The notes below the pieces were generated by a model, which was not told the origin of the DNA, did not search any database, and saw nothing but the letters and a program-made list of their open reading frames with translations. The position numbers and the translations under genes are program-made. Positions 211 to 29,693 of a DNA stretch of 29,693 nucleotides are shown here, in pieces. Source of the DNA: Candidatus Omnitrophota bacterium (GTDB lineage: Bacteria; Ratteibacteria; UBA8468; MWAK01); the NCBI GenBank assembly GCA_043797665.1, contig JAZDPL010000081.1, positions 1 through 29,693 of the forward strand, read 5' to 3'. Positions within the stretch are counted from its first letter, which is position 1, and every line of letters begins with the position of its first letter.

Positions 211-1260
211 ATGAATACCCTATACCTGCAAATAAAAGATTATTTGAGTGATGAAATCGGGAAGAGAAACGCCGGGGAACTGTTGCCCGCCGAGTCCCAA
301 CTATGTGAGATGTTCAGGGTCAGCCGGGTCCCGGTGCGAAGAGCGATGGAGGATTTGGTAAAGGACGGGTTGATTTACAGAAAGAAGGGTAAAGGAACAT
401 TCGTCAGGAAAATCGCCGCCTCACAACAGCCGTTGAGTTTTACCGTTGTCCTCCCCATGGGCGATAGAGAAATCCCTTTCTATTCATCCATTTGCATGGG
501 AATCATCGCAAAAGCGACGGAATTAAGAGCTGATACTCATATTCTCCCTTTTACCTCAAACAGAAAGAGCGTACTTGATAAGGTGGAAAACTCTCCTGAA
601 ACCGGAATAATATGGGTAGCGCCGGTTGGTGACGACCATGAAGTTCTTGAGGAATTGAGGGAACAAGGGTATCACGTGATGATCCTTAACCGGGTGATGA
701 AAAACTCGCATTTCAACTATATCAGCACAGACCATAGAAAAGGGGCGAGAGATATAACACTTCATCTCCTTGATAAGGGACACAAGAAGATCGGATTTGT
801 CGGCCGGTGGGAACTGAACCCTTCATTTGTACAGCGCTACGCGGGTTTCCTGGAGGCTTTTCAGTTGCGGGGGATGGACCGGCCGGATGGAATGATGGAA
901 TGCGTGGATGGAGGTGAATTGCTCACCTCTTCCGGTCTCAAAACCCCCTTGACAAAGATGTTTTCCCGCTACTCCCCGACCGCTCTTTTTCTCTGCGGCG
1001 GGAACTTCATAGAACCGGTGCTTACGTGGATGAAAGAGGCGCATCTGCGGGTTGCAGAAAATCTGGAAATTGCCACATTTGATGAAGTGCCTCCTTCTCA
1101 TGACGAGAAAGCGCTTATCCATGAGGTGATTCAACCCTTGAGAGAGATGGGGGTCCTGGCAGTTGAAGAGATGAGGAAAATCCTATCGGGAAAAAAGAAT
1201 CTGGTGCGGATAACTCTTCCTCCATCCATAAGGATAAAATCGCAACCCGGGAGAGCGTGA
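211..1260 (+). CDS. GntR-family transcriptional regulator with LacI-type sugar-sensing domain (AraR-like architecture)
   Basis: N-terminal GntR winged HTH (LPAESQLCEMFRVSRVPVRRAMEDLVKDGLIYRKKGKGTFV). C-terminal LacI/periplasmic-binding fold (TDHRKGA..HLLDKGHKKIGFV, RYAGF, ATFDE, VIQPLREMG). Confidence 0.93.
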   Translation: MNTLYLQIKDYLSDEIGKRNAGELLPAESQLCEMFRVSRVPVRRAMEDLVKDGLIYRKKGKGTFVRKIAASQQPLSFTVVLPMGDREIPFYSSICMGIIAKATELRADTHILPFTSNRKSVLDKVENSPETGIIWVAPVGDDHEVLEELREQGYHVMILNRVMKNSHFNYISTDHRKGARDITLHLLDKGHKKIGFVGRWELNPSFVQRYAGFLEAFQLRGMDRPDGMMECVDGGELLTSSGLKTPLTKMFSRYSPTALFLCGGNFIEPVLTWMKEAHLRVAENLEIATFDEVPPSHDEKALIHEVIQPLREMGVLAVEEMRKILSGKKNLVRITLPPSIRIKSQPGRA

Positions 1261-1275
1261 TGTCGCTCCCCGGTT
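1244..1275 (+). other. GC-rich stem-loop overlapping the regulator 1 stop codon
   Basis: AACCCGGGAGAGCG (1244-1257) pairs imperfectly with CGCTCCCCGGTT (1264-1275). There is no clear U-tract. Confidence 0.4.
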
Positions 1276-1336
1276 CCGTTCATGAATCCGCAAGAATATC
1301 AGTTGGGAAAACTCCTCCAAAGGAAGAAAGGAAAAA

Positions 1337-2152
1337 ATGATTAAGAAAATGCTGAATAGAATAGGTATATGTCATTCTGAGTGCAACGAAGAATCTATCT
1401 TTAACTTCGGGATTCTTCGGGACATTGTCCCTCAGAATGACAGGAAGAGGAGCTTTACGTTGATTGAGCTTTTGGTCGTTATCGCCATCATCGCCATCCT
1501 GGCGGCGATGCTCCTGCCGGCGCTCAGCCAGGCACGGGAGAAAGCCAGAGCGGCTACTTGTCTAAATAACCTCAAGCAGTTGTATCTTTGTTTCGTTTTG
1601 TACACCCAGGACCATGATGACTGGTGCCCAACCGCATACGACGGAATGGGTGGTGGAACAGAGGGTGATTATTACAAGATTTGGTTTATCAGGATGCAGA
1701 GAGCAGGATATATACCCACTCGCCCGGGTTGGGTGAGCCGGCCGGCTGATTACCAAGCCAATAAGAAGTTAGCAGGCATTCTCAGTTGCCCTTCTCTGCC
1801 CGTTGTTCCACCGACGTATGGCAATTGGGGGACGGATTATGGGATGAACAATTATGCTTCATGGGCTGGTGGTGCAGCCCAATTCGCGGACTTCTTTAAA
1901 TTCCCCAATGTATCCCAACCCTCATCGGTATTCCTTTTGGCAGATGGAGGGGACCCTGGTCGGGATTATTTTCAAATTTTTAAAGTCGGGGATCCCGAGT
2001 ACCCGACCGATCCCTTTGGCCCCGACTATCGTCATGCTGGAGGCACAAATGCACTCTATTTTGACGGCCACGTCAGCTGGGTTAAGGTGCCTTTTCCAGC
2101 ACAACCAACATATAAACAAACGGGAAATCGTCTCCCATGGTATTACAGGTAG
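1337..2152 (+). CDS. Prepilin-type N-terminal cleavage/methylation protein with H-X9-DG motif (DUF1559-like), pilin 1
   Basis: [46 protein letters not shown] and [13 protein letters not shown] purine-rich SD (AAAGGA) precedes the ATG. Confidence 0.93.
1370..1442. repeat. REP-like palindromic element, full copy 2, inside the pilin 1 leader
   Basis: TGTCATTCTGAG (1370-1381) / CTCAGAATGACA (1431-1442), inner CGAAGAATC (1387-1395) / GATTCTTCG (1411-1419), and a small GGGAC-ATT-GTCCC hairpin. Confidence 0.85.
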
Positions 2153-2174
2153 TTATTTGATGAGGAGGGGGAAA

Positions 2175-5100
2175 GTGAAAAAGAGAAATCTGGAAAAGAT
2201 TTTGGTGATTTTAGGGATGATTATTGGACTGAGTAAAATAAACCTTTCGGCAGAAATAACGGGAGAGAAAAACTTGATTGTAAACGGTGGTTTTGAAACG
2301 GCAGGAGAATGGAAACCAGGGAAACTTCCTGAAACATGGGGTATGTGGAACTATAAAACCTTAAAGGAAGGGGAGATTATTCTGGACAGTCAGGTAAAAC
2401 ATACGGGTAATTATTCGGTCAAGTTCACCAATTCAGCCCATGGTTTAGAACAACACATTCGCGTAAAAGCAGGTGAAAGATACAATTTCAGTTTTTATGT
2501 CAAGACCACTTTAACCACCGGAGGAATGGGGTTTTCCGTCCAGTGGCTGGACACAGAAGGTAAATGGGTTACCCGAGAAGCGTTTGAGAGTGAAAAAGAC
2601 AAACCGTGGGTCGTAAATGGAAGAGTTGGAATCGGTCATAATAGCAACTGGTATAGTATCAGGGATTGGCAGAAAGCAGAATTATCAGATATCAAAGTGC
2701 CGGAAACAGCAGTTATTGCATATATACAGATTAGTCCAATCGTTCTCCCTGTCACGGGAGAGTTCTGGGTGGATGATGTCGTTATGGAACCGGTAACTGC
2801 TAAAGAGACAATGGGAGAGATTAAGTCCCTGGTAACGATTAGCAAAACTGATACTCCTCCAATCCTGGACGGCAAGTTAACGGAAGCAATTTGGGGGAAC
2901 AGTACTGAAATAACACATTTTACGGTTGCTACGGGTTTAAATACATTAGCCCGTAAACAGACTTTGGTAAAATTATGTTATGACAATAAAGCGCTCTACG
3001 TCGGGATTCAATGCGAAGAGCCGAAGCCGGATAAACTTACGATAAAAGCTAAAAAACATGATGATGCCCAGACTTATTTTGATGATTGCATTGAAATCTT
3101 TCTGGCTCCTGAGGGAGCAGGCAAGAAGCAGTTTCACCTCTTAGTCAATCCGGCCGGAGTTTGTCAGGATAGGACAGAACTCTGGAAGGAGACAACCGTT
3201 GAGGCTGATGATGCCTGGAACCTAAACGAGAGCGATATTGTTGCTTCAATTGGGGAAAAAACCTGGACGGTTGAAGCGAAAATCCCATTTGCTGATTTAG
3301 GAATAACCGCGCCGACAAATTCGGAAACATGGGGTTTTAACGTCTGCCGCAATTCTCAGTTGCCAGAATTAGAACAAAGCAGCTGGTCTCTTCTGAATAC
3401 GCTTGCATTTCAACGTCCGGAAGGTTTTGGTAGATTAGTTTTTGAGGAAAAGGCACCGGGCATCAGGTCCTATGGCATTTCGGAACAACAAGGCTCATTC
3501 TATGTCAGCAATTCATCCAACAAGCAGGTTTCTCTCAATTTCAGCATAGAAGAACAGGAGGGGACATTTCTCTGGCCTCTCGCCCAGGGAAATATTGTTC
3601 TGGGACCAAGTAAACAACAAATTGTTCCCTTAACGCTAACAAAACCGGCTGGTAGTTTGCTGTGGGCATCGGTATATTCAGCCGATAGTCAGAGAATTCT
3701 ATATCGGGAAGGGTATCTCCCGATGTCTTCCTATGCTGTAATTGGTTGGTATGACCCGGAAAAAGTTTTAGGAAATAAGATGTATGTCGCAAGCGATTTG
3801 CGTTCTTTCAAATGTTTTTCCATTACGCATAACTTTGAAGGCGGGGCAGGAAACCCGAAACTTATCCGCCGCGAACAGAAACCGGTAGATTTATATTTTG
3901 AACTGCCGGAAGAGATTCAGGCAATCTCTCAGGTGATGTTTGTCAACGACTGGCAGTGGTGGCAGCCAATCTCTCCGGCCGAGAAGATACCATTTAACCG
4001 GGGTAATAAGAAATATGTACGTTATAAATTTGAATTACCCGCCATAATGAACTACGATAATATTATGGCTGTCTTCTTTGAAACTTCTCTGCCGCCGGGA
4101 GAGAAAAGAGACGGCTCTTGTTATTTGAAATGGGAAGGCGGCCAACAATCTACCCGACCTCTGGAAATTGAAACACTGAATATAGGAAGAACTCCGCCGC
4201 TAAAGAAGTTTGTTCATGGCATCTATTACGCCCCACCAGAATTCTGGCTGACCTGGCTGCCTAACTTAGGTGAAATGTTCCCTAAATTAGGACTTAACCT
4301 GGTAGAAATTGACCCCGTTCCAGCGGGAAAATATGACAAGGGAAGTTCTGGCCTGCCTGGTTCTCGTGAAGAATGGTTTGATGAGTTAGTGAAAGAAGCC
4401 GATAAAGGAAAAATATTTATCTCAACTGATCTTAGTGCATCAACTCCCTACGCCTGGCGTTGGGTAAGTGACGAAACAGCCCGATCTTTAAACATTAAAG
4501 GGGAGCCGATAACGGATTCCCGCGGTTATGGTTATTCCCTTTGTCCGCTCTATCGGGGAAAATTCTTCCAGGAATATATCAATAACTTTACCAACGGCGT
4601 TCCTTTTCAAAAATATAAGATTAGCTGGTTATCACTCGACCTTGAATTATGGACCGACGAGGCGTGGGAAGAAGGCTGCTTTTGTGAACGTTGTCTCAAT
4701 GCATTCAAGCAATATACGGTTGAAAAATACCCGGGAGAGGATGTGGGAGACCCGCGTCAGTTTATGTTAAATCCTGAAACCCATCCAAAGCCGGTAAAAA
4801 TCTGGAAAGAATTTAGAGCAGGGACACGACTTACATTTATCTCTGACATACGTAAACCAATAGAAGAGATTGTTCTCAAACACGGCAGGCAGACCAGTCC
4901 TAAACCCGGTCTTACCCTCTCTGATTGGTACTGGCCCAATTCAGAACTTTTTAGTGTAGTAGATTATTTTGAATCCAATCTTTACTACCGCCCGACTGAA
5001 GTGGCCAGAAGACTGGGAATATACCTGGAGAGGGCAAAAGGAAAGAAGATAATTATCGGCACTCCCAGTCCAGGCCAAGCGTGGCTGCCGGATGCAAGAT

Positions 5101-5555
5101 TAACACCTCAGGAAATGCGTTACAATATTTTCGAATGCGCTGCCGCCGGGGTGCAGGGAATGCGCTGGTACTGGATTCTGTGTTTTGATGCCTTGAAGAT
5201 AAAAACAATGGTAGAGGGAATCCGTACAATTCAACCTTTTGAAGATATCGTTTTAGAAGGGGAATGTTTTGCAGATCTCCCCTGTGAAGGAAAAGAGACA
5301 AGTGCACGAGGAATAAAATTAGGTTCAGAGTCATTGGTAATTGTCCGTTCTTATGAAACAACTAAGAAAGTAGAGGCTAAAGTAACTTTGCCTTTCGTGA
5401 AAGAAGAATCAGTAGTTTTTGATTGTTATACCAAGGAAAAAGTCGGGAGAATAACGCCTCAAAATTCTCAGATTATCTTGCCCATTACTACTGAACGCGC
5501 CAGATTATTCTATATCGGTTCGGAAACAAATTTGGAAAGGCGATTCCAAAATTGA
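2175..5555 (+). CDS. Secreted multidomain glycan-active protein: signal peptide, CBM4/9-like domain, CBM9-like domain, C-terminal glycoside-hydrolase-like barrel
   Basis: Start moved from 1854 to GTG 2175 because SD GAGGAGG lies at 2162-2168 (ATG 2160 is an alternative). MKKRNLEKILVILGMIIGLSKINLSA looks like a signal peptide. NLIVNGGFE...FWVDDV fits a CBM4/9-type fold. PILDGKLTEAIW...YDNKALYVG...DDCIEIFL...WTVEAKIPF...WGFNVCR fits CBM9-like. The C-terminal part has LCP and GCFCERC. Confidence 0.8.
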   Translation: MKKRNLEKILVILGMIIGLSKINLSAEITGEKNLIVNGGFETAGEWKPGKLPETWGMWNYKTLKEGEIILDSQVKHTGNYSVKFTNSAHGLEQHIRVKAGERYNFSFYVKTTLTTGGMGFSVQWLDTEGKWVTREAFESEKDKPWVVNGRVGIGHNSNWYSIRDWQKAELSDIKVPETAVIAYIQISPIVLPVTGEFWVDDVVMEPVTAKETMGEIKSLVTISKTDTPPILDGKLTEAIWGNSTEITHFTVATGLNTLARKQTLVKLCYDNKALYVGIQCEEPKPDKLTIKAKKHDDAQTYFDDCIEIFLAPEGAGKKQFHLLVNPAGVCQDRTELWKETTVEADDAWNLNESDIVASIGEKTWTVEAKIPFADLGITAPTNSETWGFNVCRNSQLPELEQSSWSLLNTLAFQRPEGFGRLVFEEKAPGIRSYGISEQQGSFYVSNSSNKQVSLNFSIEEQEGTFLWPLAQGNIVLGPSKQQIVPLTLTKPAGSLLWASVYSADSQRILYREGYLPMSSYAVIGWYDPEKVLGNKMYVASDLRSFKCFSITHNFEGGAGNPKLIRREQKPVDLYFELPEEIQAISQVMFVNDWQWWQPISPAEKIPFNRGNKKYVRYKFELPAIMNYDNIMAVFFETSLPPGEKRDGSCYLKWEGGQQSTRPLEIETLNIGRTPPLKKFVHGIYYAPPEFWLTWLPNLGEMFPKLGLNLVEIDPVPAGKYDKGSSGLPGSREEWFDELVKEADKGKIFISTDLSASTPYAWRWVSDETARSLNIKGEPITDSRGYGYSLCPLYRGKFFQEYINNFTNGVPFQKYKISWLSLDLELWTDEAWEEGCFCERCLNAFKQYTVEKYPGEDVGDPRQFMLNPETHPKPVKIWKEFRAGTRLTFISDIRKPIEEIVLKHGRQTSPKPGLTLSDWYWPNSELFSVVDYFESNLYYRPTEVARRLGIYLERAKGKKIIIGTPSPGQAWLPDARLTPQEMRYNIFECAAAGVQGMRWYWILCFDALKIKTMVEGIRTIQPFEDIVLEGECFADLPCEGKETSARGIKLGSESLVIVRSYETTKKVEAKVTLPFVKEESVVFDCYTKEKVGRITPQNSQIILPITTERARLFYIGSETNLERRFQN

Positions 5556-5812: not shown

Positions 5813-5860
5813 GAATTGTGTAGTTTTGCTATTTTAAAACGAACAGGTTTAGTTAAATAT

Positions 5861-6547: not shown

Positions 6548-6579
6548 GGTCCTCTCCTGTCTACTGCCTGCTTATTTTC

Positions 6580-6588
6580 ATTATACCA
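6580..6588 (-). promoter_or_regulatory. Extended -10 promoter for the HAD gene
   Basis: The minus strand reads TGGTATAAT (TGnTATAAT) about 33 nt upstream of the HAD start, back-to-back with the regulator 2 promoter. Confidence 0.55.
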
Positions 6589-6598
6589 CAAGCCCCCC

Positions 6599-6627
6599 TT
6601 GACACTTTCTTATTCCTGAGGTATAAT
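6599..6627 (+). promoter_or_regulatory. Consensus sigma70 promoter of regulator 2
   Basis: Perfect TTGACA (6599-6604), N17 spacer, TATAAT (6622-6627). Confidence 0.85.
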
Positions 6628-6659
6628 AGTGTTATACAATGTAAGTCAATATATGGCGT

Positions 6660-7775
6660 ATGGCTAAAATTAACCCCAAAAGTGCAATACCCCTGCCCCT
6701 TCAGATTAAAGAAGACATCCGGACACGGATAATCTCCGGGCAGATGAAACCGGAAGACAAACTGCCTTCCGAAACCACCCTGGCGGATGAATACGGGGTC
6801 AGCCGGATGACCAGCCGGCAGGCTCTGATTGAATTGATTAACGAAAGTATTCTCTACCGTATCCCGGGTAAAGGCACCTTTGTTGCCGGCAGACGCGATG
6901 GGAGTAATATTGATACGGGATTAACCAACCGCTTGATTATGCTCATCACCCCTGATTTACAACAATCTTTTTATTACCAGATTATCCGAAGTACGGAAAG
7001 AACCCTCACCAAAAATGGCTACGAACTTATCCTGCGTTCGGCCAGGGAAGACCCGCTGGAAGAAAGAAAATGCCTCCAGAAAATCCTGGAGGGAGCTGTA
7101 AAGGGACTCATCCTGATTGCGGAAAAATATTCGGTTACCAACCTGGACATACTGCAAAAAGTCAGGCGGAGGATACCCATTGTGATGGTTGATGTGGCTG
7201 TTCCCGGTCTGGCGACCGACCTGGTCATCTCCGACGACCAGAAAGGCGGCTTCCTTATTACGGAACACCTGATTGAATCAGGTCACAAAAATATTCTCCA
7301 CCTATCTGGTCCGGAAGGTGACTCCAGCGCAGAAAAAAGGTTATCCGGCTATCAAACAGCCTTAAAGAAACATAACCTAAAGTATCAGACAGACCTGGTC
7401 CGTTTTACTGAATGGCACGTTGCAGAAGGTTACTCTGAAACAAAGAAGTTTTTCCTGAACGGTGCGAACAAAGAAAAGGTTACCGCTATCTTTGCCTGCA
7501 ATGACGAGGTAGCCTGCGGTGCCTTTAAAGCCCTTTCGGATTTGGGAATTAAGGTCCCAAGCAATGTTGCGCTGGCCGGCTACGGAAATCTGGATATTTG
7601 TCGTTTTCTGGAAATTCCTTTGACCACGGTTGACCAGTCAACCGCAGAGATGGGTCAGACCGCCAGCCAGATGATTCTGAATAAGATTTCCGGGCAGAGG
7701 GAATTCAAGGAAAGCAAGACGGTCGTAATCCCGACAAAATTAGTAATCCGCCAATCCTGCGGATTACAGAAATAA
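6660..7775 (+). CDS. GntR-family transcriptional regulator with LacI-type sensor domain (regulator 2)
   Basis: KLPSETTLADEYGVSRMTSRQAL..LYRIPGKGTFV HTH. LacI-like C-terminus (SDDQKGG..EHLIESGHKNI, TAIFACNDEVACG, LTTVDQ, PTKLVIRQS). Confidence 0.95.
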   Translation: MAKINPKSAIPLPLQIKEDIRTRIISGQMKPEDKLPSETTLADEYGVSRMTSRQALIELINESILYRIPGKGTFVAGRRDGSNIDTGLTNRLIMLITPDLQQSFYYQIIRSTERTLTKNGYELILRSAREDPLEERKCLQKILEGAVKGLILIAEKYSVTNLDILQKVRRRIPIVMVDVAVPGLATDLVISDDQKGGFLITEHLIESGHKNILHLSGPEGDSSAEKRLSGYQTALKKHNLKYQTDLVRFTEWHVAEGYSETKKFFLNGANKEKVTAIFACNDEVACGAFKALSDLGIKVPSNVALAGYGNLDICRFLEIPLTTVDQSTAEMGQTASQMILNKISGQREFKESKTVVIPTKLVIRQSCGLQK

Positions 7776-7851
7776 ACCCTTTAAAGCACGCTTTTTGCCA
7801 CCTCAAGGTCGGAAATCTATTCGGCAAAATGTGTGGACCAAACACAGCAAC

Positions 7852-9993: not shown

Positions 9994-10067
9994 CGTTTTC
10001 AGTGATTTCATAACGGAGGAACCTGATAAACTCTGGTGGAATATGATACGAAAGGAGAGGGTGTAAA

Positions 10068-10877: not shown

Positions 10878-10885
10878 GGGGGAAA

Positions 10886-17804: not shown

Positions 17805-17884
17805 GAGCGCTCAGAACAAAAAAATCTCCGGATGACTGTCTGTTGCCTTTTGCCGTCCGGATAGATCAGGCTGTGGAGGAATAC

Positions 17885-20218: not shown

Positions 20219-20283
20219 GCCCTTGCTGTATCCTGGGCCCGGCACCGCATCATGGGAATAAAATAAATTTGGAAGAAGCAAGC

Positions 20284-23223
20284 GTGAAACGCCTTGATTC
20301 GATACCCTTTGACCCGGGCAGAATGCCGCCGCAGCCCGAGGAAAAGACCTGGGCATTTATCGAAGATCTGCGGAGCAGGCATTATCATCAGAAAATCATA
20401 TGGACCCGGCGGGAAAAAAAGCCGGGCGAGATATCTTTTCCGGGCAGCATCCGCCTGGACCACCGCTTCGACGATCCGCGCGGGCTGCTCGATACGGCCA
20501 TCGCGGATTTCCGCTGTTTTCTGGGCACGGTGGGCCTTGGGAGCAATGAAGGTTATCCGCTTGTGACATGCCGACGCAGGACTTCGCTCCGCGAGGAGTA
20601 CCGTATCAGCATTAGTAACGAGCGCTGCGAGCTCGGCGCGGATGACACCGAAGGCATCCGTCGCGGCCTTGTATGGATCGAAGACGAAATGCTGCGTCGA
20701 GGCGGGACCTTCCTGCCTGTCGGCGACTTCACCCGCACACCGGTCATTCGCACGCGAATTTCCCGCTGTTTCTACGGGCCGGTCAACCGTCCGCCGAAAA
20801 GCAAGGATGAACTCGCGGACGATGTGGATTATTACCCCGAGGAATATCTGAACCGGCTTGCGCATGAAGGCATCAACGGGCTGTGGCTGACCCTGCATTT
20901 TTTCCAGACTGTGCCGTCCAGGATCATTCCCGAATACGGCAGGAACGCCGGGCCGCGCCTGGAAAAACTTCGGAGCGTGGTGCAGAAATGCGGGCGCTAC
21001 GGCATCAAGATCTATCCATTCTGCATTGAACCCGCGGCGTTCAACTGGCCCAGCAGGGAGGTGGCTGCAGCCGCGGCGGCCCACCCGGAGCTCAAGGGGC
21101 ATAATGATGCCTTCTGCACCAGCACCGAGAAGGGGCAGGCTTATCTCGAAGAGGCCACTCGCACCCTTTTTACCGAGGTGCCGGGTCTCGGAGGCTTGAT
21201 GGTCATTCCGGTGGGCGAACGCTTCACGCACTGTTATTCCGGCGTGATCCCGCACGACGGCCCTCCCTTCTCGAACACCTGTCCGCGTTGTTCCAAACGC
21301 ATGCCCTGGGACGTACTGGCGGATATCCTCGCCGGCCTGGCGCGCGGGATGCAGGCCATCGACCCTGAGGCGGAACTGATCGCCTGGCCTTACGGACAGA
21401 GCGTGTGCTGGGGAGCGGAAAATACCGTGAAGTCGGCCGGGCATATGCCCGGAAACGTGATTCTTCAGCACAACTTTGAAACAGGCGGCAGGAACGTTCA
21501 GCTCGGAAAGGGGCGTCCGACCTGGGATTACTGGCTCTCGTACGTCGGGCCCAGCGACCTTTTCCGGGATTGCGCCGGGGCTGCGATACGGTGCGGCACG
21601 CGCGTCTCTGCAAAACTGCAGGTCAGCTGTTCCCATGAAGTGGCCACCACGCAGGTCGTGCCGGTGCCGGGCATCCTTTACAAGAAATACCGGCGCATGC
21701 ATCAAATGGGGGTCAGTTCCGCCATGCATTCATGGTACTTCGGCGCCTATCCTTCGCTTATGACCCGGGCTGCGGGAATGCTCTCCTTCGCGCCTTTCCC
21801 TGCCAGGGAGCGCGACTTTCTCCTTTCGCTCGCACGGCGGGATTGGGGCAGGCATGCCGTCGACGTCGTGAAGGCCTGGCAGTGCTTCCAGAAGGGATAT
21901 TCCCAGTATCCGACAGCCCACATCTTCGGCTACTTCGGACCCGCGCATGACGGCCCGGTGTGGCCGCTCCATCTTGTGCCGCGCCGCCTGCCGCTCGCGC
22001 CGACCTGGCAGATCGGGTACCCGCCTTCCGGGGATTACATCGCGGAATGCATTACGAACGGGTTCACGCTCAGGGAAACACTCATACTCTGCCGGCGGAT
22101 GGCTGAGCACTGGAACAGGGGCGTCGGAATATTGAAAAAGCTCAAACCCTGTTTCAAGGCAGAGCCCGACCGGATAAAGGATATCGGTATCGCCGCGGCG
22201 CTGGGGCTTCAGTTCCAGAGTACCTGCAACATACTGGAGTTCTATTCCCTGCGGGAGTCCCTGGCCGAAACACGTCTGCCCGCCGGACGGCGCCGGCTTC
22301 TGAAAACCATGAAGGAGATTGTCCGCGCGGAACTGGAAATCGACGAAGCATTACTGCCTCTGGCGCGCGCCGATTCGCGGCTGGGGTTTCATTCCGAGGC
22401 CGAGGGGTACAAATACTTTCCGGACCTGATCCGCTGGCGGATGAAGCAGTTACGCCATTTGTTGAAAGAGGAGTTTCCGGCTGTTGAACGCCGGACGGGA
22501 AAAAACGAACCGCTTTTCCCTGATTACACCGGTGAAAAACCGTCCGGCCCGGTGTATGCCTGCAGGTTTCTGCAAAAAGCCCCGTCCTTCGGCAGGAAAC
22601 CTGCGGGCGTGTGGGACGAACTGCCGCAGGCTGAATGCATCCACTGGCTTCAGCAGGAGTTCAACCACGAACGCTGGAAAAAGTGCGGATATGACGGGTA
22701 CGACCATCTCCCGGTGCCCGATGAGGAGAAACAGGGCCGCCGGGTATTCTGGAAAGCCGGTTATGACAGCCAGGCGCTTTATGTCTCCCTCCTGTGCCGG
22801 GCCGGAAAGGATGAGGCATATCCGGCAGGCGCTTTCAGGGAAAACGAGTTGCAGGTTTTTATCGAACCGCGGCGGACGCTGCCCAGGGTCATCTTTTCCC
22901 TCAGCCCTGATGGTTCTGCGCGGTGTATAAAGGACGACGGGTATATTCCGCGAAACGACAACCCCTGGAGTGTTTCTTCGCGCCTCGATGAGAACGGCTG
23001 GTCCGTGCGGCTCAGGGTTCCGTTCAAATGGCTCGGATCAGGCGGGCCTGGAACGAAGCGGAAGCCGGGCCGGTTCAATGTGGTGTGGAACTGCTCCCGT
23101 GAGGGGAAACCGGGCAGGAAGTCCTGTTCCTGGGTAAAAACAGAGCCGGTCAAAGGCAGGCTTGTGTGGAACTATCTGAATCCTGCCACGGATTTCGGCT
23201 GGTTGTTCTTTGAAAAAACATAA
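20284..23223 (+). CDS. Uncharacterised glycoside-hydrolase-like protein (GH20-domain-2-like N-terminus, barrel core, degenerate CBM9-like C-terminus)
   Basis: EEYRISIS...GADDTEGIRRGLVWIED...PVIRTR, then YPEEYLNRLAHEGINGLWL, then C-terminal YDSQALYVS...WSVRLRVPF..RFNV. The start is uncertain (ATG 20197, TTG 20269 or GTG 20284). Confidence 0.65.
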   Translation: MKRLDSIPFDPGRMPPQPEEKTWAFIEDLRSRHYHQKIIWTRREKKPGEISFPGSIRLDHRFDDPRGLLDTAIADFRCFLGTVGLGSNEGYPLVTCRRRTSLREEYRISISNERCELGADDTEGIRRGLVWIEDEMLRRGGTFLPVGDFTRTPVIRTRISRCFYGPVNRPPKSKDELADDVDYYPEEYLNRLAHEGINGLWLTLHFFQTVPSRIIPEYGRNAGPRLEKLRSVVQKCGRYGIKIYPFCIEPAAFNWPSREVAAAAAAHPELKGHNDAFCTSTEKGQAYLEEATRTLFTEVPGLGGLMVIPVGERFTHCYSGVIPHDGPPFSNTCPRCSKRMPWDVLADILAGLARGMQAIDPEAELIAWPYGQSVCWGAENTVKSAGHMPGNVILQHNFETGGRNVQLGKGRPTWDYWLSYVGPSDLFRDCAGAAIRCGTRVSAKLQVSCSHEVATTQVVPVPGILYKKYRRMHQMGVSSAMHSWYFGAYPSLMTRAAGMLSFAPFPARERDFLLSLARRDWGRHAVDVVKAWQCFQKGYSQYPTAHIFGYFGPAHDGPVWPLHLVPRRLPLAPTWQIGYPPSGDYIAECITNGFTLRETLILCRRMAEHWNRGVGILKKLKPCFKAEPDRIKDIGIAAALGLQFQSTCNILEFYSLRESLAETRLPAGRRRLLKTMKEIVRAELEIDEALLPLARADSRLGFHSEAEGYKYFPDLIRWRMKQLRHLLKEEFPAVERRTGKNEPLFPDYTGEKPSGPVYACRFLQKAPSFGRKPAGVWDELPQAECIHWLQQEFNHERWKKCGYDGYDHLPVPDEEKQGRRVFWKAGYDSQALYVSLLCRAGKDEAYPAGAFRENELQVFIEPRRTLPRVIFSLSPDGSARCIKDDGYIPRNDNPWSVSSRLDENGWSVRLRVPFKWLGSGGPGTKRKPGRFNVVWNCSREGKPGRKSCSWVKTEPVKGRLVWNYLNPATDFGWLFFEKT

Positions 23224-23254
23224 TGGCCTATTATGTAGGCATAGGATATAATAA

Positions 23255-24352
23255 ATGAAGATGACACAACGTGAACGTTTGTTGGCGCCCTTCAAGGGAA
23301 TCGTGCCGGATCACCCATGTTGGACGGCGGACCTCACCTATTGGCACGGTGCAGCGGCCGCGCGCGGAAGGCTGGAAGAACGCTACCGCACAACCGCCGG
23401 GTTCAAGCAGATGCATCTGGATCTGGGTCTCTGTTATTACTACAACTACGGTGAATCGCCCCTCAAGTCTCTCGACCCAGAAACGGAATGCGGCATCGAG
23501 GAGAAAAATGGAGTGCGGCGGCGCTGGTGGCGTACGCCTGCGGGTACGCTGACCGAACGATGGCGGTTTCTGCCGGAATCCTACTGCTGGGCCCCCGAGG
23601 AATACGCCGTCAAAGAACCTTCCGATTTTGCCGCGCTGCGTTTTGTCTTCGCGCAGCGGCGTTATGAGCCGAACTATGAAACCTTCATACAACGCGATGA
23701 ATTCGTTGGTGAATCAGGTGTCCCCTTGACGGCCATGCCGCGCAGTCCCCTCCCGGCATTGCTGACCGATTGGTGCGGTGTCGAAAAAACCATCTACTTC
23801 CTGGTCGACATTCCCGACCTTGTCGCGGAGACGTTGAGCTGTATAGACCGGTCCAACGATGCTGCCGTTGAAATTCTCCTGGGCAGTCCGGCGGTCCTGT
23901 TCCATTTCTGCGATAATCTCGACAGCAGCGCTTCGACGCCGTTCTTTAAGGACTACATGCGGGAATATTATCAGCACCGCCTGGCGCAGGTCCACCAGGC
24001 AGGCAAATATGGCGTCGTTCATCTGGACGGACGGGTACGCGGCCTGATCGGCAAGCTGGCCGGCTGCGGGTTCGACGGTATTGAAGCGATCACGCCGGCT
24101 CCGGTCGGTGATGTGAGCATCGAGGAAACGCGTGCGCTGGCCGACAATGACCGGGTGGTGTTGTGGGGCGGCGTGCCCGGCGCCATGTTTGTGCCCCCAT
24201 GGCGGAAATCCGACGTGTGCGAACAGACGCGTCGCGTCGTGAAAGCCTGGGGCGGAACCGGGAAGGTGATCGTCGGAAGCGCAGATCAGGTGCCGCCGGA
24301 CGGCTGTCTGGAATTTTGCCGGGCGATCGCCGAAACGGTCGAAAGCCTGTAG
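23255..24352 (+). CDS. Uroporphyrinogen-decarboxylase/MtaA-CmuA-superfamily (URO-D/CIMS-like) protein
   Basis: MTQRERLLA, WRTPAGTL, CDNLDS, VVHLDG, DGIEAITPAPVGD, VLWGGVP and IVGSADQVPP follow the URO-D-like barrel pattern. Confidence 0.8.
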   Translation: MKMTQRERLLAPFKGIVPDHPCWTADLTYWHGAAAARGRLEERYRTTAGFKQMHLDLGLCYYYNYGESPLKSLDPETECGIEEKNGVRRRWWRTPAGTLTERWRFLPESYCWAPEEYAVKEPSDFAALRFVFAQRRYEPNYETFIQRDEFVGESGVPLTAMPRSPLPALLTDWCGVEKTIYFLVDIPDLVAETLSCIDRSNDAAVEILLGSPAVLFHFCDNLDSSASTPFFKDYMREYYQHRLAQVHQAGKYGVVHLDGRVRGLIGKLAGCGFDGIEAITPAPVGDVSIEETRALADNDRVVLWGGVPGAMFVPPWRKSDVCEQTRRVVKAWGGTGKVIVGSADQVPPDGCLEFCRAIAETVESL

Positions 24353-24422
24353 AACCCTATGTATATCACGGCGAGTTCAACGACCGCCGCAAACGGGTAC
24401 TCATTAAAATCATAGGTGACGC

Positions 24423-25247
24423 ATGAAAATGAGAGAGCGGTTCTGGCTTTGGGGACAAGATGCCGGAAGCCATCACGGGGCGGCCGGCAATGCCACCTGG
24501 AAACTGCCGGGAACAAACCGTATGGACCCGGCGGAAGGGGCGGCCTATTTTGGAATCAAAAACATGTGCCGGGTAGTGATGTGCGGAAAACCGGAACCGC
24601 CGTTCGATAATGAATCCGCCAAACTTGTTTCCATGGATCAGGTGGTGTGGTCGGCCATCGGCGACAGCGGTTCCACTCGTAATAACGATAATGAGAGCGA
24701 TCTGGATGAAGTTTTGCGGCAGGCCGGGAAATTTCCCAATATCACCGGCGCTGTCCTGGACGATTTCTTTGTGGCCAGAAGAACCCCGGGCGCCTCATAC
24801 GGTCGGCACTCTGTGGAGAGCATCGCGAAGATGCGTGACCGGCTGCACCGTTTTCCAAAACGACCGCTGGACCTCTGGGTAGTCTGGTATAAACGCCAAT
24901 TGGGTTTTGAGATAGATGACTACTTGAATCTGTTTGATGTAATCACCTACTGGAATATGCGTGCCTGCTCGGAGTATGCCCAGATTGATGACGATATCGC
25001 CCGGGTCGTGCGCCGGACTCCGGGCAAGCGGCGGCTGGCCGGATGTTACATGTGGAATTACGGTGAGGGCAAGCCCCTGACAATCAAAGAAATTCAGGAC
25101 CAGTGCGAAAAATACCATACCTGGATCAAAAAGGGATACATCGAAGGCATCGTCTTCGTCTCAAATTGCATTGCGGATCTCGGTCTGGAGGCGGTGGAAT
25201 GGACCAGGAATTGGATAGGGGAAATCGGCAACGAAGAGACGCCGTAG
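24423..25247 (+). CDS. Hypothetical protein, possible small TIM-barrel enzyme
   Basis: Open 274-codon frame in operon context with alternating beta/alpha segments (ITGAVLDDFF, LWVVWY, DVITYW, LAGCY, EGIVF). Confidence 0.7.
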   Translation: MKMRERFWLWGQDAGSHHGAAGNATWKLPGTNRMDPAEGAAYFGIKNMCRVVMCGKPEPPFDNESAKLVSMDQVVWSAIGDSGSTRNNDNESDLDEVLRQAGKFPNITGAVLDDFFVARRTPGASYGRHSVESIAKMRDRLHRFPKRPLDLWVVWYKRQLGFEIDDYLNLFDVITYWNMRACSEYAQIDDDIARVVRRTPGKRRLAGCYMWNYGEGKPLTIKEIQDQCEKYHTWIKKGYIEGIVFVSNCIADLGLEAVEWTRNWIGEIGNEETP

Positions 25248-25298
25248 GCGACGAATTTCGAAACAAAATGAGATTATCCAGTCAAAAGAGGGGGAAAT

Positions 25299-26459
25299 AT
25301 GCCTACACACAAAGAAACGGTTATCACGAATGCAGAATTCAAATCCAGAATCAGTAATCTTCAATCCATACTTGCCAATGAGGAACCGGATGCCCTGCTG
25401 GTTTTTTCCACCGAATCCGAACCGGCGGGAGTAAGGTATTTTTCAGATTACTGGCCAAGTTTTGAAACCGCCGGAGTGTTGGTGCCGAAAAACGGAGCGC
25501 CCGCGCTTCTTATCGGCCCGGAAAGTATGGCTTTTGCAAAGGGCAGGTCAAAAATAGAAAACATCATAAGGATAAAGGATTTCAGGGAATCTTCGCAACC
25601 GGATTATCCCGGCTCAAAATTAATTTCGTGGCCGGAATTATTTAATAATTTCAAAGTAAAAAAACTTGGGATAGCAGGATGGCACATGTTCCCCCATACC
25701 ATTTTTAAAAATATAGCCGCCGCACTAACGGATAAAAATGTATACTGCGCAGACGAAATTGTAAGAAAGGTTACCCTGAAAAAAAGTCCGGCTGAACTGG
25801 ATTGTCTGAGAAAAGCCGCAAAAATTTCAGAGCTGGGCTTTAAGGCGGTTTTAGAAAACATAAAATCCGGAATGACGGAAGCTCAACTTGCCGGAATTGC
25901 CGCAGGAGAAATGATGAAGAACGGAGCGGAATCCACGGGATATCCGATCTGGTGCTGCAGCGGACCTAACTCAACCCAGGCTATCAGCCGCCCCAGTCAC
26001 CGGCAGGTGAAAGAAGGCGAGATTATTCATTTCAGTATTGGCGCGAAAGTTTCCGGATACAGCGCCAGCATAGGCCGTCCTGTTGTGTTGGGACATTGCC
26101 CGGAAGAAACACTCAAATTCCTGCAGGTTGGTTTAGATGCGGAAAACATGACCATTGATTTGATGCGCGCCGATACTCACGCGGCCAGGGTTGCGGAAAA
26201 AGTGCACGGGTTTATCCGGGAAAAAGGTTACGGCAATACAATTCTTTACGGTCCCGCACACGGATGCGGGCAAATGGAATGCGAGTTTCCGTTTCTGGAA
26301 ACATCTTCGGAATTCACGTTGGAAACAGGAATGGTTTTTATGGCAGATATTTTTCTGGCAAACCAGGAGATGGGTTTCAGATGGGAAGACGGAGTTATCA
26401 TCACCTCCGGCAAACCGGAAGAACTTTCAACCTATAAAAGGGAAATGAACATATTATGA
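25299..26459 (+). CDS. M24-family (creatinase/Xaa-Pro peptidase fold) hydrolase with altered metal ligands
   Basis: Creatinase-type N-terminus (RISNLQSIL..DALLV..VRYFSDY), KSPAELDCLRKAA, HGCG, GMVF and RWED. SD GAGGGG lies upstream. Confidence 0.88.
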   Translation: MPTHKETVITNAEFKSRISNLQSILANEEPDALLVFSTESEPAGVRYFSDYWPSFETAGVLVPKNGAPALLIGPESMAFAKGRSKIENIIRIKDFRESSQPDYPGSKLISWPELFNNFKVKKLGIAGWHMFPHTIFKNIAAALTDKNVYCADEIVRKVTLKKSPAELDCLRKAAKISELGFKAVLENIKSGMTEAQLAGIAAGEMMKNGAESTGYPIWCCSGPNSTQAISRPSHRQVKEGEIIHFSIGAKVSGYSASIGRPVVLGHCPEETLKFLQVGLDAENMTIDLMRADTHAARVAEKVHGFIREKGYGNTILYGPAHGCGQMECEFPFLETSSEFTLETGMVFMADIFLANQEMGFRWEDGVIITSGKPEELSTYKREMNIL

Positions 26460-26562
26460 TTCACTACTGCCCGGTTAAAGATTGAATAATAGCAACTGTT
26501 TCGGGCTTTCAGTATCTATAGGTATTTTGTAATTGTGTTGAGAAAGCAAGTATTCCGCCCCC

Positions 26563-26591
26563 TTGACGTTCTTTCCCTTCTGAGGTATAAT
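26563..26591 (+). promoter_or_regulatory. Sigma70 promoter, duplicate of the regulator 2 promoter
   Basis: TTGACG (26563-26568), N17 spacer, TATAAT (26586-26591). Positions 26580-26698 are identical to 6616-6734. Confidence 0.8.
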
Positions 26592-26623
26592 AGTGTTATA
26601 CAATGTAAGTCAATATATGGCGT

Positions 26624-26785
26624 ATGGCTAAAATTAACCCCAAAAGTGCAATACCCCTGCCCCTTCAGATTAAAGAAGACATCCGGACACGGATAATCGC
26701 CGGGCAGAGGGAATTCAAGAAAAGCAAGACGGTCGTAATCCCGACAAAATTAGTTATCCGTCAGTCCTGCGGATTACAGAAATGA
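26624..26785 (+). pseudogene. Internally deleted duplicate of regulator 2 (53-codon in-frame remnant)
   Basis: Translates MAKINPKSAIPLPLQIKEDIRTRIIAGQREFKKSKTVVIPTKLVIRQSCGLQK*. This is the first and last parts of 6660-7775 joined at CCGGGCAGA, with 954 nt missing. Confidence 0.92.
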
Positions 26786-26791
26786 ATTTAT

Positions 26792-26821
26792 TGTCACTCT
26801 GAGGGAATCCCGAAGAATCTC
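26792..26821. repeat. Left half of the REP-like element (copy 3)
   Basis: TGTCACTCTGAG-N7-CGAAGAATCTC matches the left arm of copies 1 and 2 and directly precedes the pilin 3 SD (AAAGGAGG). Confidence 0.7.
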
Positions 26822-26837
26822 ATAAAGGAGGAACCTT

Positions 26838-27593
26838 ATGTTGCGAAGTAAAAAAGTAGTTTGGAAAAAAGGCAGAAAATCGTTTACGTTGATTGAGCTC
26901 TTGGTCGTAATCGCTATCATCGCGCTTTTAGCGGCGATGTTGTTACCGGCATTGTCTCAAGCGCGGGAAAAAGCGCGCCAGGCTAACTGTATGAACAACT
27001 TGAAGCAAATAGGGATAGCTTTAATGCTATATGCGGATGATAACGACGGCTGGACGCCGTATTCGTGGGATGGCACATCGAGATGGCATCGGTACCTGAC
27101 CAACAACTCCTCCTATCTTCCCGCCCCCCTTTACGGTACGACCTCGAACAGAGGCATCATTCTGTTCTGCCCCAGCGGCCAACCGAGGAATTTTGCTGTC
27201 AGTAATTATGTCAACTATACGTATGGATTCCGAACCAATGCTAACCAAAATAATTCCTGGCAAATAGGCGGCGGTTATCCGGTACGTTGCTATAGCCTCA
27301 ACAACAGTAGCTACATCCCCTCAACATTGGGAGCGAGTGACCTGGCGCTTATCGTTGATAGTATGGGGTCAACTTCCAATCCAGGTACAGCGGGGTCTGG
27401 ATATGGAACATATTATTGGGAATATGCCAACGTCGGGTATAGCTATGCAGCAAAAATTTGTGCGCGGCATAACGGCATGGCCAATATACTTTACGCGGAC
27501 GGGCATGTGCAAAGCAGCGGCCCAGGGGACCTGCCGAATATCTGCGGGGATACTGGCTGGTACGATGGGTCCGGTACTTTACTGGGCCGGTAA
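26838..27593 (+). CDS. Prepilin-type N-terminal cleavage/methylation protein with H-X9-DG motif, pilin 3
   Basis: Basic leader, then [47 protein letters not shown] and [21 protein letters not shown] lies upstream. Confidence 0.93.
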
Positions 27594-27648
27594 AGAACAG
27601 GAAGCTGGCAGGTAAAACTTTTATCGTCATTTTCAAGGAGGTGGCAGC

Positions 27649-29693
27649 ATGATCGGAAAAGAAGCAGCGGGAATTATGGTTGCCGCGCTACTGGCGGTGG
27701 TTGCATTCTGTGCGCGTGCGGAAAGCGGCGCTCTGGTGAAAGACGGGAAGGCGGTCAGTTACATAGTTCTGCCGGACAATGCCGGCCCGGCGGAAAAACA
27801 TGCGGCGAGCGAGCTGGCGGGTTTTCTCGGCAAAGTAACCGGAGCGGCGCCGGAAATAGGAATAGCACCTTCGGAAAATCTGTGGAATATCTATCTTGGA
27901 ACAACTGAAACCAAGAACATGCCCCGCTCACGCGCCGGCGACGAGGCCATTTCCCAGTTGAAAAACGACGGGTTCGTACTGGCGGTCGACAAAGACGGTC
28001 TGCGTGTGATAAGCAGGAAACCGGTGGGCGTGCTTTACGGCGTTTACGATATTCTGAAGAAATACGCGGATATCAGGTGGTTTGCGCCCGGGGCGGATTT
28101 CGAATACTGTCCGAAAAAACCGACTGTCATCGTGCCGGAACAGGTCACGGTCAGCAACCCGTCGTTCAGGGTCCGTGAATTGGGCTTCGTCTGCGCCAAC
28201 TGGAATTCAAAAACCATAGACAGTTGGGATTGGATGGTGCGCAACGGCATGACCGTCCAGTTTGGCAAGCATTACTACAATCTGGACGCGAGTTTGCGTA
28301 ACGAGGTGGAAAAACGCGGAGTGACGATCGGCCGTGACGGAGGCCACTGTTTCGCCTATCTGCTCAGCGACACTCTCTTTGCCCAGCATCCCGAATATTT
28401 CGGGCTTTTCGACGGCAAGCGCACACCTCAGGATCTTGGCGATGGACGGGGCGCGCGCCGGCAGCCCTGTACTTCGAATCCGGACGTCGCAAAAATCATG
28501 ACCGAGGGCATAAACAAGTATTTCGATACGACGCCCAAAGGGGGAAAATATCTCATTGGCAACAACGATGCCAGCGATTGGTGCCAGTGCGAGAACTGCG
28601 TCAAATTGGATCCTCCGGAAGAAAAACGAAAGGGATTCGTCAGCACGAGATACTGGACGCTGGTCAATAAAATCGCCGCGGAGGTCTATAAAACCCACCC
28701 TGATGCCAATCTCGGGGCATGGGGATACCAGAATTTTCAATATCCGCCAACCGGAGTCGTGCCCGATCCGCGGCTTTTTGTTCAGGTTTGCCTGCACGGC
28801 CGTTGCTACCGCCACTCCATGGCGGATCTTCAATGCCCGGCCAATGAGAGGTATCGCGATATCCTTGGTCAATGGGGCAAGTTGAAAAACACCATTTGCA
28901 CCCTGGAATTTCTTGGCGGCGATTGCGGGTTTCCCGCCTATGCGCCCATAGAGAAAACCTTTGCCGAGGACATCAAATATTACAAGAAGATTGGGCTGCT
29001 CGGAATCGACATCTTTACCGTGCCTCCCGATGGGGTATTGATCCCAGATTTCCGCTCTCCGCGATACCAGGAAGAAATGCTGACACAATGGCAATGGTAT
29101 TACATCATCGCGCAGTTACTCTGGAACAGCGACGCTGATTACGTGGCAATTTACGAGGACATGGGGAGCAAATATTACGGAGCCGCCTGGCCGGTCATGA
29201 GCCGATACCGCGCGCTATTGACCAGGGCTTTTATGGAAACCTCGGGCCATATCTGCTATGGAACTCCGGAATATGTGATGGGCAAATGCCTGGAAAAGCC
29301 GGGCGTGGAGGCGGTGCTTTTCACCATGCTGGACGAGGCCGAAAAGTCTGCGGCCGCCGACCCGGCCGCGGTGAAAAGGGTACAACGTGACCGGCATTTT
29401 TTTCAGGCATACTGGCAGCCCCTTCATAAGGAGTTTTTGTCCAAACAGCAGAAGGAGCTTAATGCCAATAAAAAAGTCGATAAAATCGTCATAGACGGGA
29501 ATTTTGAGGAACCGGACTGGAAAAAAGCCGACTTCACCTCCGGCTTCATCGTGACGGACGGCAAGACGGCAGCTTTGCCGCAGACCTTTGCAAAAATGCT
29601 CTATGACAATGACAACATCTATTTTGCCGTTGAGGCCATGGAACCCGAACCGGCCAGGATGAAAATAAAGGCAGAGGAGCGTGACGGCGCGGT
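27649..29693 (+). CDS. Secreted DUF4838-type glycoside-hydrolase-like protein with CBM9-like domain (3'-truncated by the window edge; absent from the ORF track)
   Basis: SD AAGGAGG at 27635-27641 and ATG 27649. My translation gives MIGKEAAGIMVAALLAVVAFCARA (signal), AASELAGFLGKVTG, DGFVL..GVLYGVYDILKKY..IRWFAPG, HPEYFGL.DGKR, QPCTSNPDV, NDASDWCQCENC, then IVIDGNFEEPDW...LYDNDNIYFAV. The frame stays open to the edge. Confidence 0.85.
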   Translation, partial: MIGKEAAGIMVAALLAVVAFCARAESGALVKDGKAVSYIVLPDNAGPAEKHAASELAGFLGKVTGAAPEIGIAPSENLWNIYLGTTETKNMPRSRAGDEAISQLKNDGFVLAVDKDGLRVISRKPVGVLYGVYDILKKYADIRWFAPGADFEYCPKKPTVIVPEQVTVSNPSFRVRELGFVCANWNSKTIDSWDWMVRNGMTVQFGKHYYNLDASLRNEVEKRGVTIGRDGGHCFAYLLSDTLFAQHPEYFGLFDGKRTPQDLGDGRGARRQPCTSNPDVAKIMTEGINKYFDTTPKGGKYLIGNNDASDWCQCENCVKLDPPEEKRKGFVSTRYWTLVNKIAAEVYKTHPDANLGAWGYQNFQYPPTGVVPDPRLFVQVCLHGRCYRHSMADLQCPANERYRDILGQWGKLKNTICTLEFLGGDCGFPAYAPIEKTFAEDIKYYKKIGLLGIDIFTVPPDGVLIPDFRSPRYQEEMLTQWQWYYIIAQLLWNSDADYVAIYEDMGSKYYGAAWPVMSRYRALLTRAFMETSGHICYGTPEYVMGKCLEKPGVEAVLFTMLDEAEKSAAADPAAVKRVQRDRHFFQAYWQPLHKEFLSKQQKELNANKKVDKIVIDGNFEEPDWKKADFTSGFIVTDGKTAALPQTFAKMLYDNDNIYFAVEAMEPEPARMKIKAEERDGA

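Follow-up and report, generated by a model that had tools for sequence, protein, structure and literature searches.

The stretch of DNA analysed here (hereafter the window) is the whole 29,693-nucleotide contig JAZDPL010000081.1, which is contig C46 of the 2.69-Mb, 93-contig genome of a Candidatus Omnitrophota bacterium (G000; 86% complete). It carries three genes for prepilins of the H-X9-DG/DUF1559 type, each standing between a sugar regulator, or the remains of one, and genes for exported carbohydrate-related proteins. We propose that such prepilins, on balance probably, act as substrate-specific receptor subunits of a shared retractile type IV filament, the substrates being glycans at this locus and vitamin B12 elsewhere. 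A pilin stands in cluster after cluster, the genome holds about 60 copies, no TonB-dependent receptor was found in it, and in related genomes a B12-linked paralogue changes places with such a receptor; taken together, these observations make it likely that the pilins are substrate-specific capture subunits.

Linkage of prepilins to glycan enzymes and sugar regulators

The pilins of the genome were counted by a stalk profile search, which returned 61 full-length H-X9-DG/DUF1559-type prepilins. All three window pilins (1337..2152, 10068..10877 and 26838..27593, forward strand; Pfam N_methyl and SBP_bac_10) exceed the Pfam cut-offs for both domains, and pilins 1 and 3 also exceed the TIGR04294 cut-off of 19 (28.7 and 21.1 bits, respectively); pilin 2 falls just below it at 18.3 bits, with the literal H-X9-DG motif present. 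Genome-wide, TIGR04294 yielded 52 matches, of which 46 exceeded the cut-off; 14 control genomes gave none. As anticipated from the letters of the DNA alone, the three window pilins are nearly identical over their first ~42 mature residues, share CPS and H-X9-DG-H beyond that point, and are 38-40% identical overall. Their heads had been described as rich in W, Y and N, which proved true of the 61 paralogues compared with other proteins (W, 3.9% versus 1.4%; Y, 7.5 versus 3.5; N, 7.0 versus 3.8); taken over all heads, there is an excess of W, Y, N, G and S and a deficit of K, E and R. The features of a class III signal peptide are present in the window pilins, F1 and E5 being invariant in 58 aligned pilin rows. 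The residue at position -1 is G, A or S in 59 of the 61 pilins, one of the remaining two being a parsing error. In the window it is Ser, Ala and Ser, preceding mature F1 at 1454, 10254 and 26883, respectively, and both A and S are cleavable at this position. Further along the alignment, invariance is complete at C36 and C90 and nearly complete at H168, N173, D178 and H180, and the segments between the motifs differ in length (e.g. 27-68 and 4-43 residues), with 11-15% W+Y in four of five.

The suspicion that these prepilins might be associated with carbohydrate genes beyond the window was borne out, the 61 genes being enriched beside those for carbohydrate-active enzymes (CAZymes) and beside GntR-LacI regulators. 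To score neighbours, 2222 genes were called with a custom codon model, and the 58 pilins outside the window, minus one followed by another pilin and one at a contig end, provided 56 next genes. Thirty of the 56 encode a named glycoside hydrolase (GH), carbohydrate-binding module (CBM), LamG or F5/8 domain; the remaining ones have DUF4838 alone (one), DUF6259 (two), no match (14) or other domains (nine). A GH, CBM or lectin domain was found in only 4 of 150 control genes (20 randomly chosen regions, each at a distance of more than five genes from any pilin, supplied 151 genes, of which 150 were used, a LysM protein not being counted; Fisher p=1.6e-16), and when only proteins of at least 500 amino acids were considered the figures were 20 of 34 next genes versus 4 of 17 controls (p=0.02); because the control genes are clustered, these p-values overstate the enrichment. 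Such a domain occurs in the first or second gene after the pilin in 41 of 56 cases (41 of 52 second genes scanned). Stand-alone lectin-like proteins directly follow other pilins of the genome in nine more instances (six LamG, three CBM4_9), bringing the pilins so followed to 10 with the window included, and pilin and next gene are co-directional in 58 of 60 cases.

Sugar-sensing regulators, which stand together with CAZyme genes in the modules of the window, show a similar tendency. One lies no more than two genes upstream of 29 of 54 pilins versus 73 of 1989 other genes, the regulator set consisting of the GntR-LacI cluster plus two small clusters (FadR-like and AraC-like by eye) chosen because they had been seen beside pilins; 16 of the 33 GntR-LacI genes adjoin a pilin. 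Outside this count, a sugar regulator is fused in frame to a pilin twice (C8:31843-33750 and C65:29412-31388). A correlation between pilin count and DUF4838 count over 21 genomes (rho 0.59) was discarded, as it fell to 0.17 (p=0.45) after genome size was removed.

The B12-type paralogue and its exchange with a TonB-dependent receptor

One paralogue of the window pilins, C85:39554 (stretch 39554-50194), ends an operon for cobalamin salvage and ABC import that comprises cobS, cbiB, an aminotransferase gene, cobQ, a DUF71-type gene, btuF-, btuC- and btuD-like genes, btuR and the pilin. Heads of this B12 type matched in 11 of 20 relatives, are conserved in 34 of 51 genomes of the class (completeness at least 80%) and occur in 132 database proteins with sources named, among others, as Armatimonadetes, Omnitrophica and Planctomycetota. 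The B12-type pilin is followed by btuFCD-like genes in 9 of 11 loci. In 12 of 17 loci a cobalamin riboswitch immediately precedes it, in two more the riboswitch is at the head of its operon, and in the other three the contig ends upstream, so that a riboswitch heads the pilin's unit in 14 of 14 testable loci. No cobalamin riboswitch was found in the window's own genome, where the B12 operon runs off its contig; the single thiamine pyrophosphate (TPP) riboswitch of that genome heads thi4, not a pilin. At least 80% conservation is seen in 48 columns of the B12-type head versus 12 across the genome's own paralogues, as expected if the head sets the ligand.

Comparison of close relatives revealed that this pilin and a TonB-dependent receptor occupy the same place. 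In G049 (genus g17) the order is tRNA, riboswitch, pilin, btuF, btuR, btuC, btuD, whereas its congener G048 has tRNA, riboswitch, TonB-dependent receptor, TonB, btuF, btuR, btuC, btuD and the same next gene, and G047 has the receptor version too. Similarly, G001, from the window's genus, carries btuR-receptor-TonB-btuFCD within its cob operon and has no B12-type pilin, and G006 carries btuR-pilin-btuFCD where G001 has the receptor and TonB. The plug domain was detected in 2 of 34 genomes with the B12 pilin versus 6 of 17 without it (p=0.012, the genomes being kin and not independent). Where receptor and pilin occur together, in two genomes, it is the pilin that stands behind the riboswitch; the receptors sit close to or at the edges of contigs, and the available sequence around them shows no riboswitch. 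In G017 (C15, L183:5028-8219), the riboswitch and B12-type pilin are kept and a DUF4838 gene comes next instead of btuFCD. Co-folding of the B12-type head with BtuF gave a score of 0.00, which speaks neither for nor against binding. A weak parallel of glycan type was also noted: G002 has receptor-TonB-GH42-like-DUF6785 at a contig edge and contig C79 of the present genome has pilin-GH42-like-GH2-DUF6785, the enzymes not being orthologues of those in G002. Separately, in L093:49-2342, from a record titled Clostridium, an AdoCbl-II riboswitch, a pilin and a Peripla_BP_2 gene follow one another; its head is unmatched by the C85 head, and it may represent another B12-linked type or come from a mis-binned contig.

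In the window's genome itself, no TonB-dependent barrel or plug (PF00593, PF07715) was found, and tblastn with the receptors and TonB proteins of relatives gave no convincing match. The original prediction had supposed that the pilins plug into a machine encoded elsewhere, and the required parts are indeed present in the genome outside the window: one prepilin peptidase, PilD; four secretins, of which the three scanned reached 59-78 bits on NF042912 (Amuc_1098-type; cut-off 750); 12 ATPases over the T2SSE cut-off, which comprise assembly ATPases (PilB/GspE) and two proteins over the PilT-family cut-off, for retraction; four PilC/GspF proteins; and GspG, GspK and PilM. Pilin-like genes also form two paralogous clusters, of four or five genes each (C52:87679-92448, which ends with an H-X9-DG pilin, and C30:7199-10688), and these might encode the tip complex of the machine using these pilins.

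Predicted heads, stalk recombination and layout of the window

Structures were predicted with AlphaFold2 for window pilin 2 (pLDDT 84.4; 58-row alignment) and for the B12-type paralogue (pLDDT 91.9; 116-row alignment), and both models consist of a ~50-residue N-terminal helix (3-53) and a beta-rich head. When they were used in structural searches, nearly all of the top ~20 rows were pilins and solute-binding proteins were not among the top rows. The best match was PilA4 (Z 5.9, rmsd 3.0, 111 aligned for pilin 2; Z 6.2 for the B12 type), its matches spanning rmsd 3.0-3.4 and 111-123 aligned over the two models; Foldseek gave no match at E<=0.001, and no solved DUF1559-like structure was among the structural matches. 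The H-X9-DG stretch is modelled as a two-strand hairpin (171-185). Since the H-X9-DG and Cys motifs are common to B12-type, core and glycan-locus pilins, we read them as part of the predicted pilin core rather than as a specificity site. Specificity thus more likely lies in the variable segments of the predicted head than in a ligand pocket at these motifs, where the original prediction had suggested looking for one.

Judged by their sequences, the paralogues fall into three kinds: a core pilin found across the class, a conserved type that belongs to the B12 regulon, and about 55 private types, of which most lie in glycan loci. The core type is represented by a stand-alone pilin (C1:5737-6336), whose head has matches in 16 of 20 relatives at the threshold applied to the head of pilin 3. 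It adjoins polA in 8 of 14 loci examined, often with two or three copies in tandem, and is a candidate for the major subunit of the filament. The same gene faces an O-antigen-ligase/TPR gene and a bacterial sugar transferase gene, possibly a glycosylation locus. At the private end, the head of pilin 2 had one relative among 5.8 billion proteins and that of pilin 3 none in 20 relatives.

Three recent pilin pairs suggest how private heads may come to stand where they do. In each pair, the two genes have unrelated DNA upstream, most differences in their first 10-40 codons are synonymous, and the rate of synonymous change (dS) is 0.53-0.59 in the stalk versus 0.08-0.17 in the head. A diverged stalk start and unrelated upstream DNA combined with close heads point to a crossover inside the conserved stalk DNA, which would let a head and its enzymes move behind a new promoter. 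Pilin 3 is one such case, with the crossover placed within its first ~10-25 codons. Its head is 86% identical to that of a paralogue on C81 with a different leader, and pilin and DUF4838 partner recur there at 92-93% nucleotide identity (93% for the DUF4838 gene against 27649..29693). In the C81 copy, a 1196-residue open reading frame (ORF; C81:2042-5632) without Pfam match, absent from the window copy and with one 30%-identical paralogue on C22, lies between pilin and DUF4838 gene. The ratio of nonsynonymous to synonymous change (dN/dS) was 1.05, 0.74 and 0.36 in the heads of the three pairs versus 0.45 for the DUF4838 pair, small counts by which selection for change is not established.

Most pilin leaders have their own ribosome-binding site, as judged by eye. 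That of pilin 1 has been lengthened in frame by a REP-like palindromic repeat (1370-1447; 46 matches genome-wide), and similar insertions are seen in pilin leaders of C37. A second element of ~75 bases, with four matches in the genome, lies after regulator 2 (7776-7849) and in the leader of pilin 2 (10176-10252). Neither constitutes a pilin-specific upstream cassette signal, the former being near pilins in only 3 of 46 instances and the latter in 2 of 4. Silent pilS-like cassettes were ruled out as well, as the genes are full length and most have a leader and ribosome-binding site.

With respect to the rest of the window, Pfam domains were called on 17 ORFs, and the order of regulator or promoter, prepilin and exported glycan-related proteins that the original prediction had recognized three times was found again in all three modules, every feature lying on the forward strand. 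Module 1 is headed by regulator 1 (211..1260), which joins a GntR helix-turn-helix domain to a LacI-type sugar-binding domain (Peripla_BP_3). Following pilin 1, it continues with an exported 1126-residue CBM4_9 + CBM9 protein (2175..5555; signal-peptide-like N-terminus) whose C-terminal ~700 residues have no Pfam match. Module 2 starts with a promoter-like site and GntR-LacI regulator 2 (6599..7775, ORF 6660-7775; assigned by Pfam and nucleotide comparison) and proceeds through a GH20-domain-2 protein without signal peptide (7795..9993; start uncertain, 7795 to about 7850) to pilin 2, for which a type IV pilin fold and a large, variable head are predicted. Next come a stand-alone LamG/ConA-like lectin-fold protein (10886..11611) and a 1594-residue GH42-like protein (11644..16428), both assigned by Pfam and both with a signal-peptide-like N-terminus indicating export. 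Seven co-directional genes continue the module (16425..26459; Pfam and gene calls); the contents include GH32/43-like, beta-helix, URO-D-like and M24 peptidase genes and unknowns of 984 and 274 residues, and the first three genes have no signal peptide. The URO-D-like gene (23255-24352) is one of 55 in the 2.7-Mb genome, several of which lie within pilin-led glycan loci; we assume that such genes may encode corrinoid-dependent methyltransferases.

Module 3 had been credited with a promoter only. A promoter-like site (TTGACG-17-TATAAT, 26563-26591) is indeed present, and it belongs to a copy of regulator 2 together with its promoter (26558..26786; 94% nucleotide identity in two pieces), deleted internally between short direct repeats (6736-6744 and 7690-7698 in the parent) to leave a 53-codon ORF (26624-26785). 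Behind pilin 3, an exported DUF4838 + GH67N protein with a signal-peptide-like N-terminus (27649..29693) is cut by the contig end. In agreement with what had been noted from the letters, the 17 ORFs scanned contain no transporter or pilus-assembly domain by Pfam. No Rfam family matched the window, and the one RNA run found (0.06 share of words) was uninformative, giving only three short contigs inside the GH42-like gene. Positions 1-141 are identical to the ends of contigs C50, C82 and C89, a repeat at the assembly break.

Rival readings and known systems

If the pilins are receptor subunits, uptake might proceed as follows. The regulator would induce pilin and enzymes together, PilD would cleave the pilin leader, and the pilin would join the filament as a minor subunit whose head binds a glycan or oligomer. 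Retraction driven by PilT would then bring the ligand of the head through the secretin to periplasmic lectins and hydrolases, the filament thereby taking over the outer-membrane step performed elsewhere by a TonB-dependent receptor and TonB. Such a subunit is predicted to combine an invariant stalk and core (C36, C90 and the H-X9-DG hairpin) with variable, aromatic-rich segments, and new modules would arise by recombination in the conserved stalk DNA, which places a head and its enzymes behind a new promoter. A wider generalization, to which we commit ourselves less and whose truth we would put slightly below an even chance, is that of a TonB-independent route across the outer membrane in which one retractile filament takes up exchangeable receptor pilins, of which about 55 would serve glycans, one B12 and one as the core subunit, each being induced along with its catabolic operon and all being reshuffled through recombination in their stalk DNA. 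DUF1559 would then be the counterpart, in bacteria of the Planctomycetes-Verrucomicrobia-Chlamydiae (PVC) group and related bacteria, of a TonB-receptor repertoire, and the basis of the planctomycete 'fishing rod'.

Much of the linkage described above would also be produced by a cargo-specific pseudopilin of a type II secretion system (T2SS) that binds no glycan and selects, pushes out or anchors the lectin or hydrolase encoded beside it. The genome contains complete T2SS gene sets, 55 of 58 pilin operons include an exported protein, small, stand-alone LamG or CBM4_9 proteins come right after 10 of the pilins, next genes in other phyla include Ig-domain proteins, phosphoesterases and other non-glycan proteins, and DUF1559 genes are often flanked by signal-peptide genes according to the parts consulted of PMC8567305. 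An export adaptor would not, however, be expected to replace a receptor and TonB, an import function, as the B12 pilin does, nor to be partnered with BtuCD, which work at the inner membrane, nor to be kept behind the riboswitch without btuFCD as in G017; moreover, 21 of 58 next genes have no signal peptide even by a generous heuristic, among them GH29, GH38, GH2 and GH95 enzymes. We thus regard this explanation as rather unlikely. The B12 paralogue bears similarly on the idea of glycan-specific adhesins that tether the cell to glycan particles near its secreted enzymes, with products entering through porins and nothing being pulled in. The aromatic-rich variable heads, the small number of recognisable importers and the pilus proposed for glycan attachment in Akkermansiaceae (MUL2; PMC13174399) are all compatible with adhesion, which nevertheless leaves unexplained both a riboswitch-controlled B12 paralogue in the receptor slot and the cytoplasmic-type glycosidases in the same operons, and appears improbable to us. 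More improbable still, to the point of being a marginal candidate, is that the pilins are mere passengers, a variable-antigen or phage-escape library that spreads by stalk-DNA recombination and hitchhikes in flexible carbohydrate islands. Each of the three recent pairs has its crossover within the stalk, dN/dS reaches 1.05 in the heads and the heads are nearly private, all of which would suit it; the fixed position of the pilins, their common direction with the next gene, their frequent place directly after a regulator, the ribosome-binding sites of their leaders and the conservation of the B12 head across phyla behind a riboswitch would not.

Returning to substrate-specific receptor subunits, several observations weigh against this interpretation. 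The receptor role is indicated genomically only for the B12 paralogue and is extended to the window pilins by homology, and two genomes hold both the TonB receptor and the B12 pilin. The failure to find TonB receptors rests on an 86%-complete genome. Inner-membrane importers are few (one SSF, three MFS and seven ABC permease matches, the latter resembling phosphate, peptide and molybdate types), and this scarcity of sugar importers leaves the import route incomplete. Only 7 of the 58 pilin operons encode a multi-spanning membrane protein. The SSF and each of the three 12-helix DUF6785 proteins lie within two to four genes of a pilin, and the DUF6785/DUF6784 proteins (C63:9641-20368, C72:24233 and C79:66287) are candidate inner-membrane importers; that on C63 is accompanied by an OPT-like protein and a peptidase M28-FtsX fusion. 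The frequency of exported proteins in the operons, and of next genes that look exported (37 of 58 by the generous heuristic; background, 337 of 1701), would be no less expected of an export adaptor. Similar heads go with similar neighbours in the closest pairs only: such neighbours were found for 4 of 7 head pairs of at least 100 bits, 0 of 5 at 60-100 bits and about 6% below. The near-private heads of the window, and the pair with a head dN/dS of 1.05, could reflect phage escape rather than ligand fidelity, and the Z scores of the predicted structures are middling. Lastly, 77 named loci from outside the class yielded 50 complete H-X9-DG pilins in 46 loci and 40 scorable next ORFs. Lentisphaeria, with 14 of these loci, account for all seven next ORFs that have a GH, CBM or lyase domain; of the 26 others, none was named GH, CBM or polysaccharide lyase and one has a PA14 domain, ORF picking being crude in this GC-rich DNA. 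Together with the B12 paralogue, these outside next genes imply a family role that is not glycan-only, and the glycan link may be lineage-dependent. The glycan-recognition role originally suggested hence stands as far as linkage in this genome and in Lentisphaeria goes and falls short as a description of the family.

How Planctomycetota, Verrucomicrobiota, Lentisphaeria and their uncultured kin take up polysaccharides without SusC/SusD is an open question, to which this locus ties DUF1559, one of the largest families without known function in those groups. The B12 paralogue, with its known ligand, conserved head and natural swap with a TonB-dependent receptor, renders the idea testable. Were it true, pilin counts and neighbours would provide a read-out of substrate range in thousands of genomes, the variable heads would be a source of new glycan-binding modules, and import driven by a pilus would be categorically new.

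The pilins share the domains, motifs and large expansion of the DUF1559/SBP_bac_10 (PF07596) family with N_methyl (PF07963) and TIGR04294. In the sections consulted, DUF1559 proteins form a large paralogous expansion in Planctomycetales, with members expressed and found in membrane fractions (PMC8567305), and have been called solute-binding and stress-regulated (PMC2754498). The literature consulted, in which subscription papers and supplements are poorly covered, assigns the family no ligand or pathway and does not tie it to glycan loci or B12 uptake, and term look-ups in the main-text portions covered of PMC11685898 and PMC11535203 found no mention of pilins in glycan loci. Here, by comparison, the family is split into core, B12-regulon and private types. 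Planctomycete fibres are alike in binding polysaccharide: dextran binds pili-like fibres (PMC5394234), and 'fishing rod' fibres have been proposed to pull polysaccharide into the periplasm (PMC5394234, PMC12078418), although the parts consulted of these papers name no subunit genes, substrate-specific subunits or vitamins. The type IV-like pilus of MUL2 is likewise tied to glycan use in the PVC group, but is encoded by one conserved machinery locus with an archaeal-type pilin (Amuc_1102), whereas here there is one pilin per enzyme locus. In Sulfolobus, the bindosome, needed for sugar uptake, assembles substrate-binding proteins with class III signal peptides in a type IV pilus-like manner (PMC3047682). 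The class III leader is shared, and pilus-like assembly would be; from what was consulted, the binder there has an ABC solute-binding fold and the archaeon lacks an outer membrane, whereas here the pilin head itself would bind and would cross the outer membrane.

Bacteroidota SusC/SusD loci combine a regulator, a substrate-specific gene and CAZymes, and btuB-btuFCD combines a riboswitch, an outer step and BtuFCD. The gene logic here is the same, with a ~210-residue prepilin in the slot and TonB barrel, plug and TonB not found. The analogy to SusC/SusD drawn in the original prediction has strong indirect support from the swap of the B12 paralogue with a TonB-dependent receptor and TonB; no pair of TonB-dependent transporter and SusD was found in the window, and the loci are not SusC/SusD loci but likely work like them. 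A further comparison is with ComP of Neisseria, a minor pilin through which a shared retractile pilus acquires specificity for the DNA that it takes up. It is a weak structural match to the predicted pilins (5hz7 and 2nba; Z 4.5-5.0), and where ComP is a single DNA receptor, the present genome would hold a library of about 60 regulated subunits.

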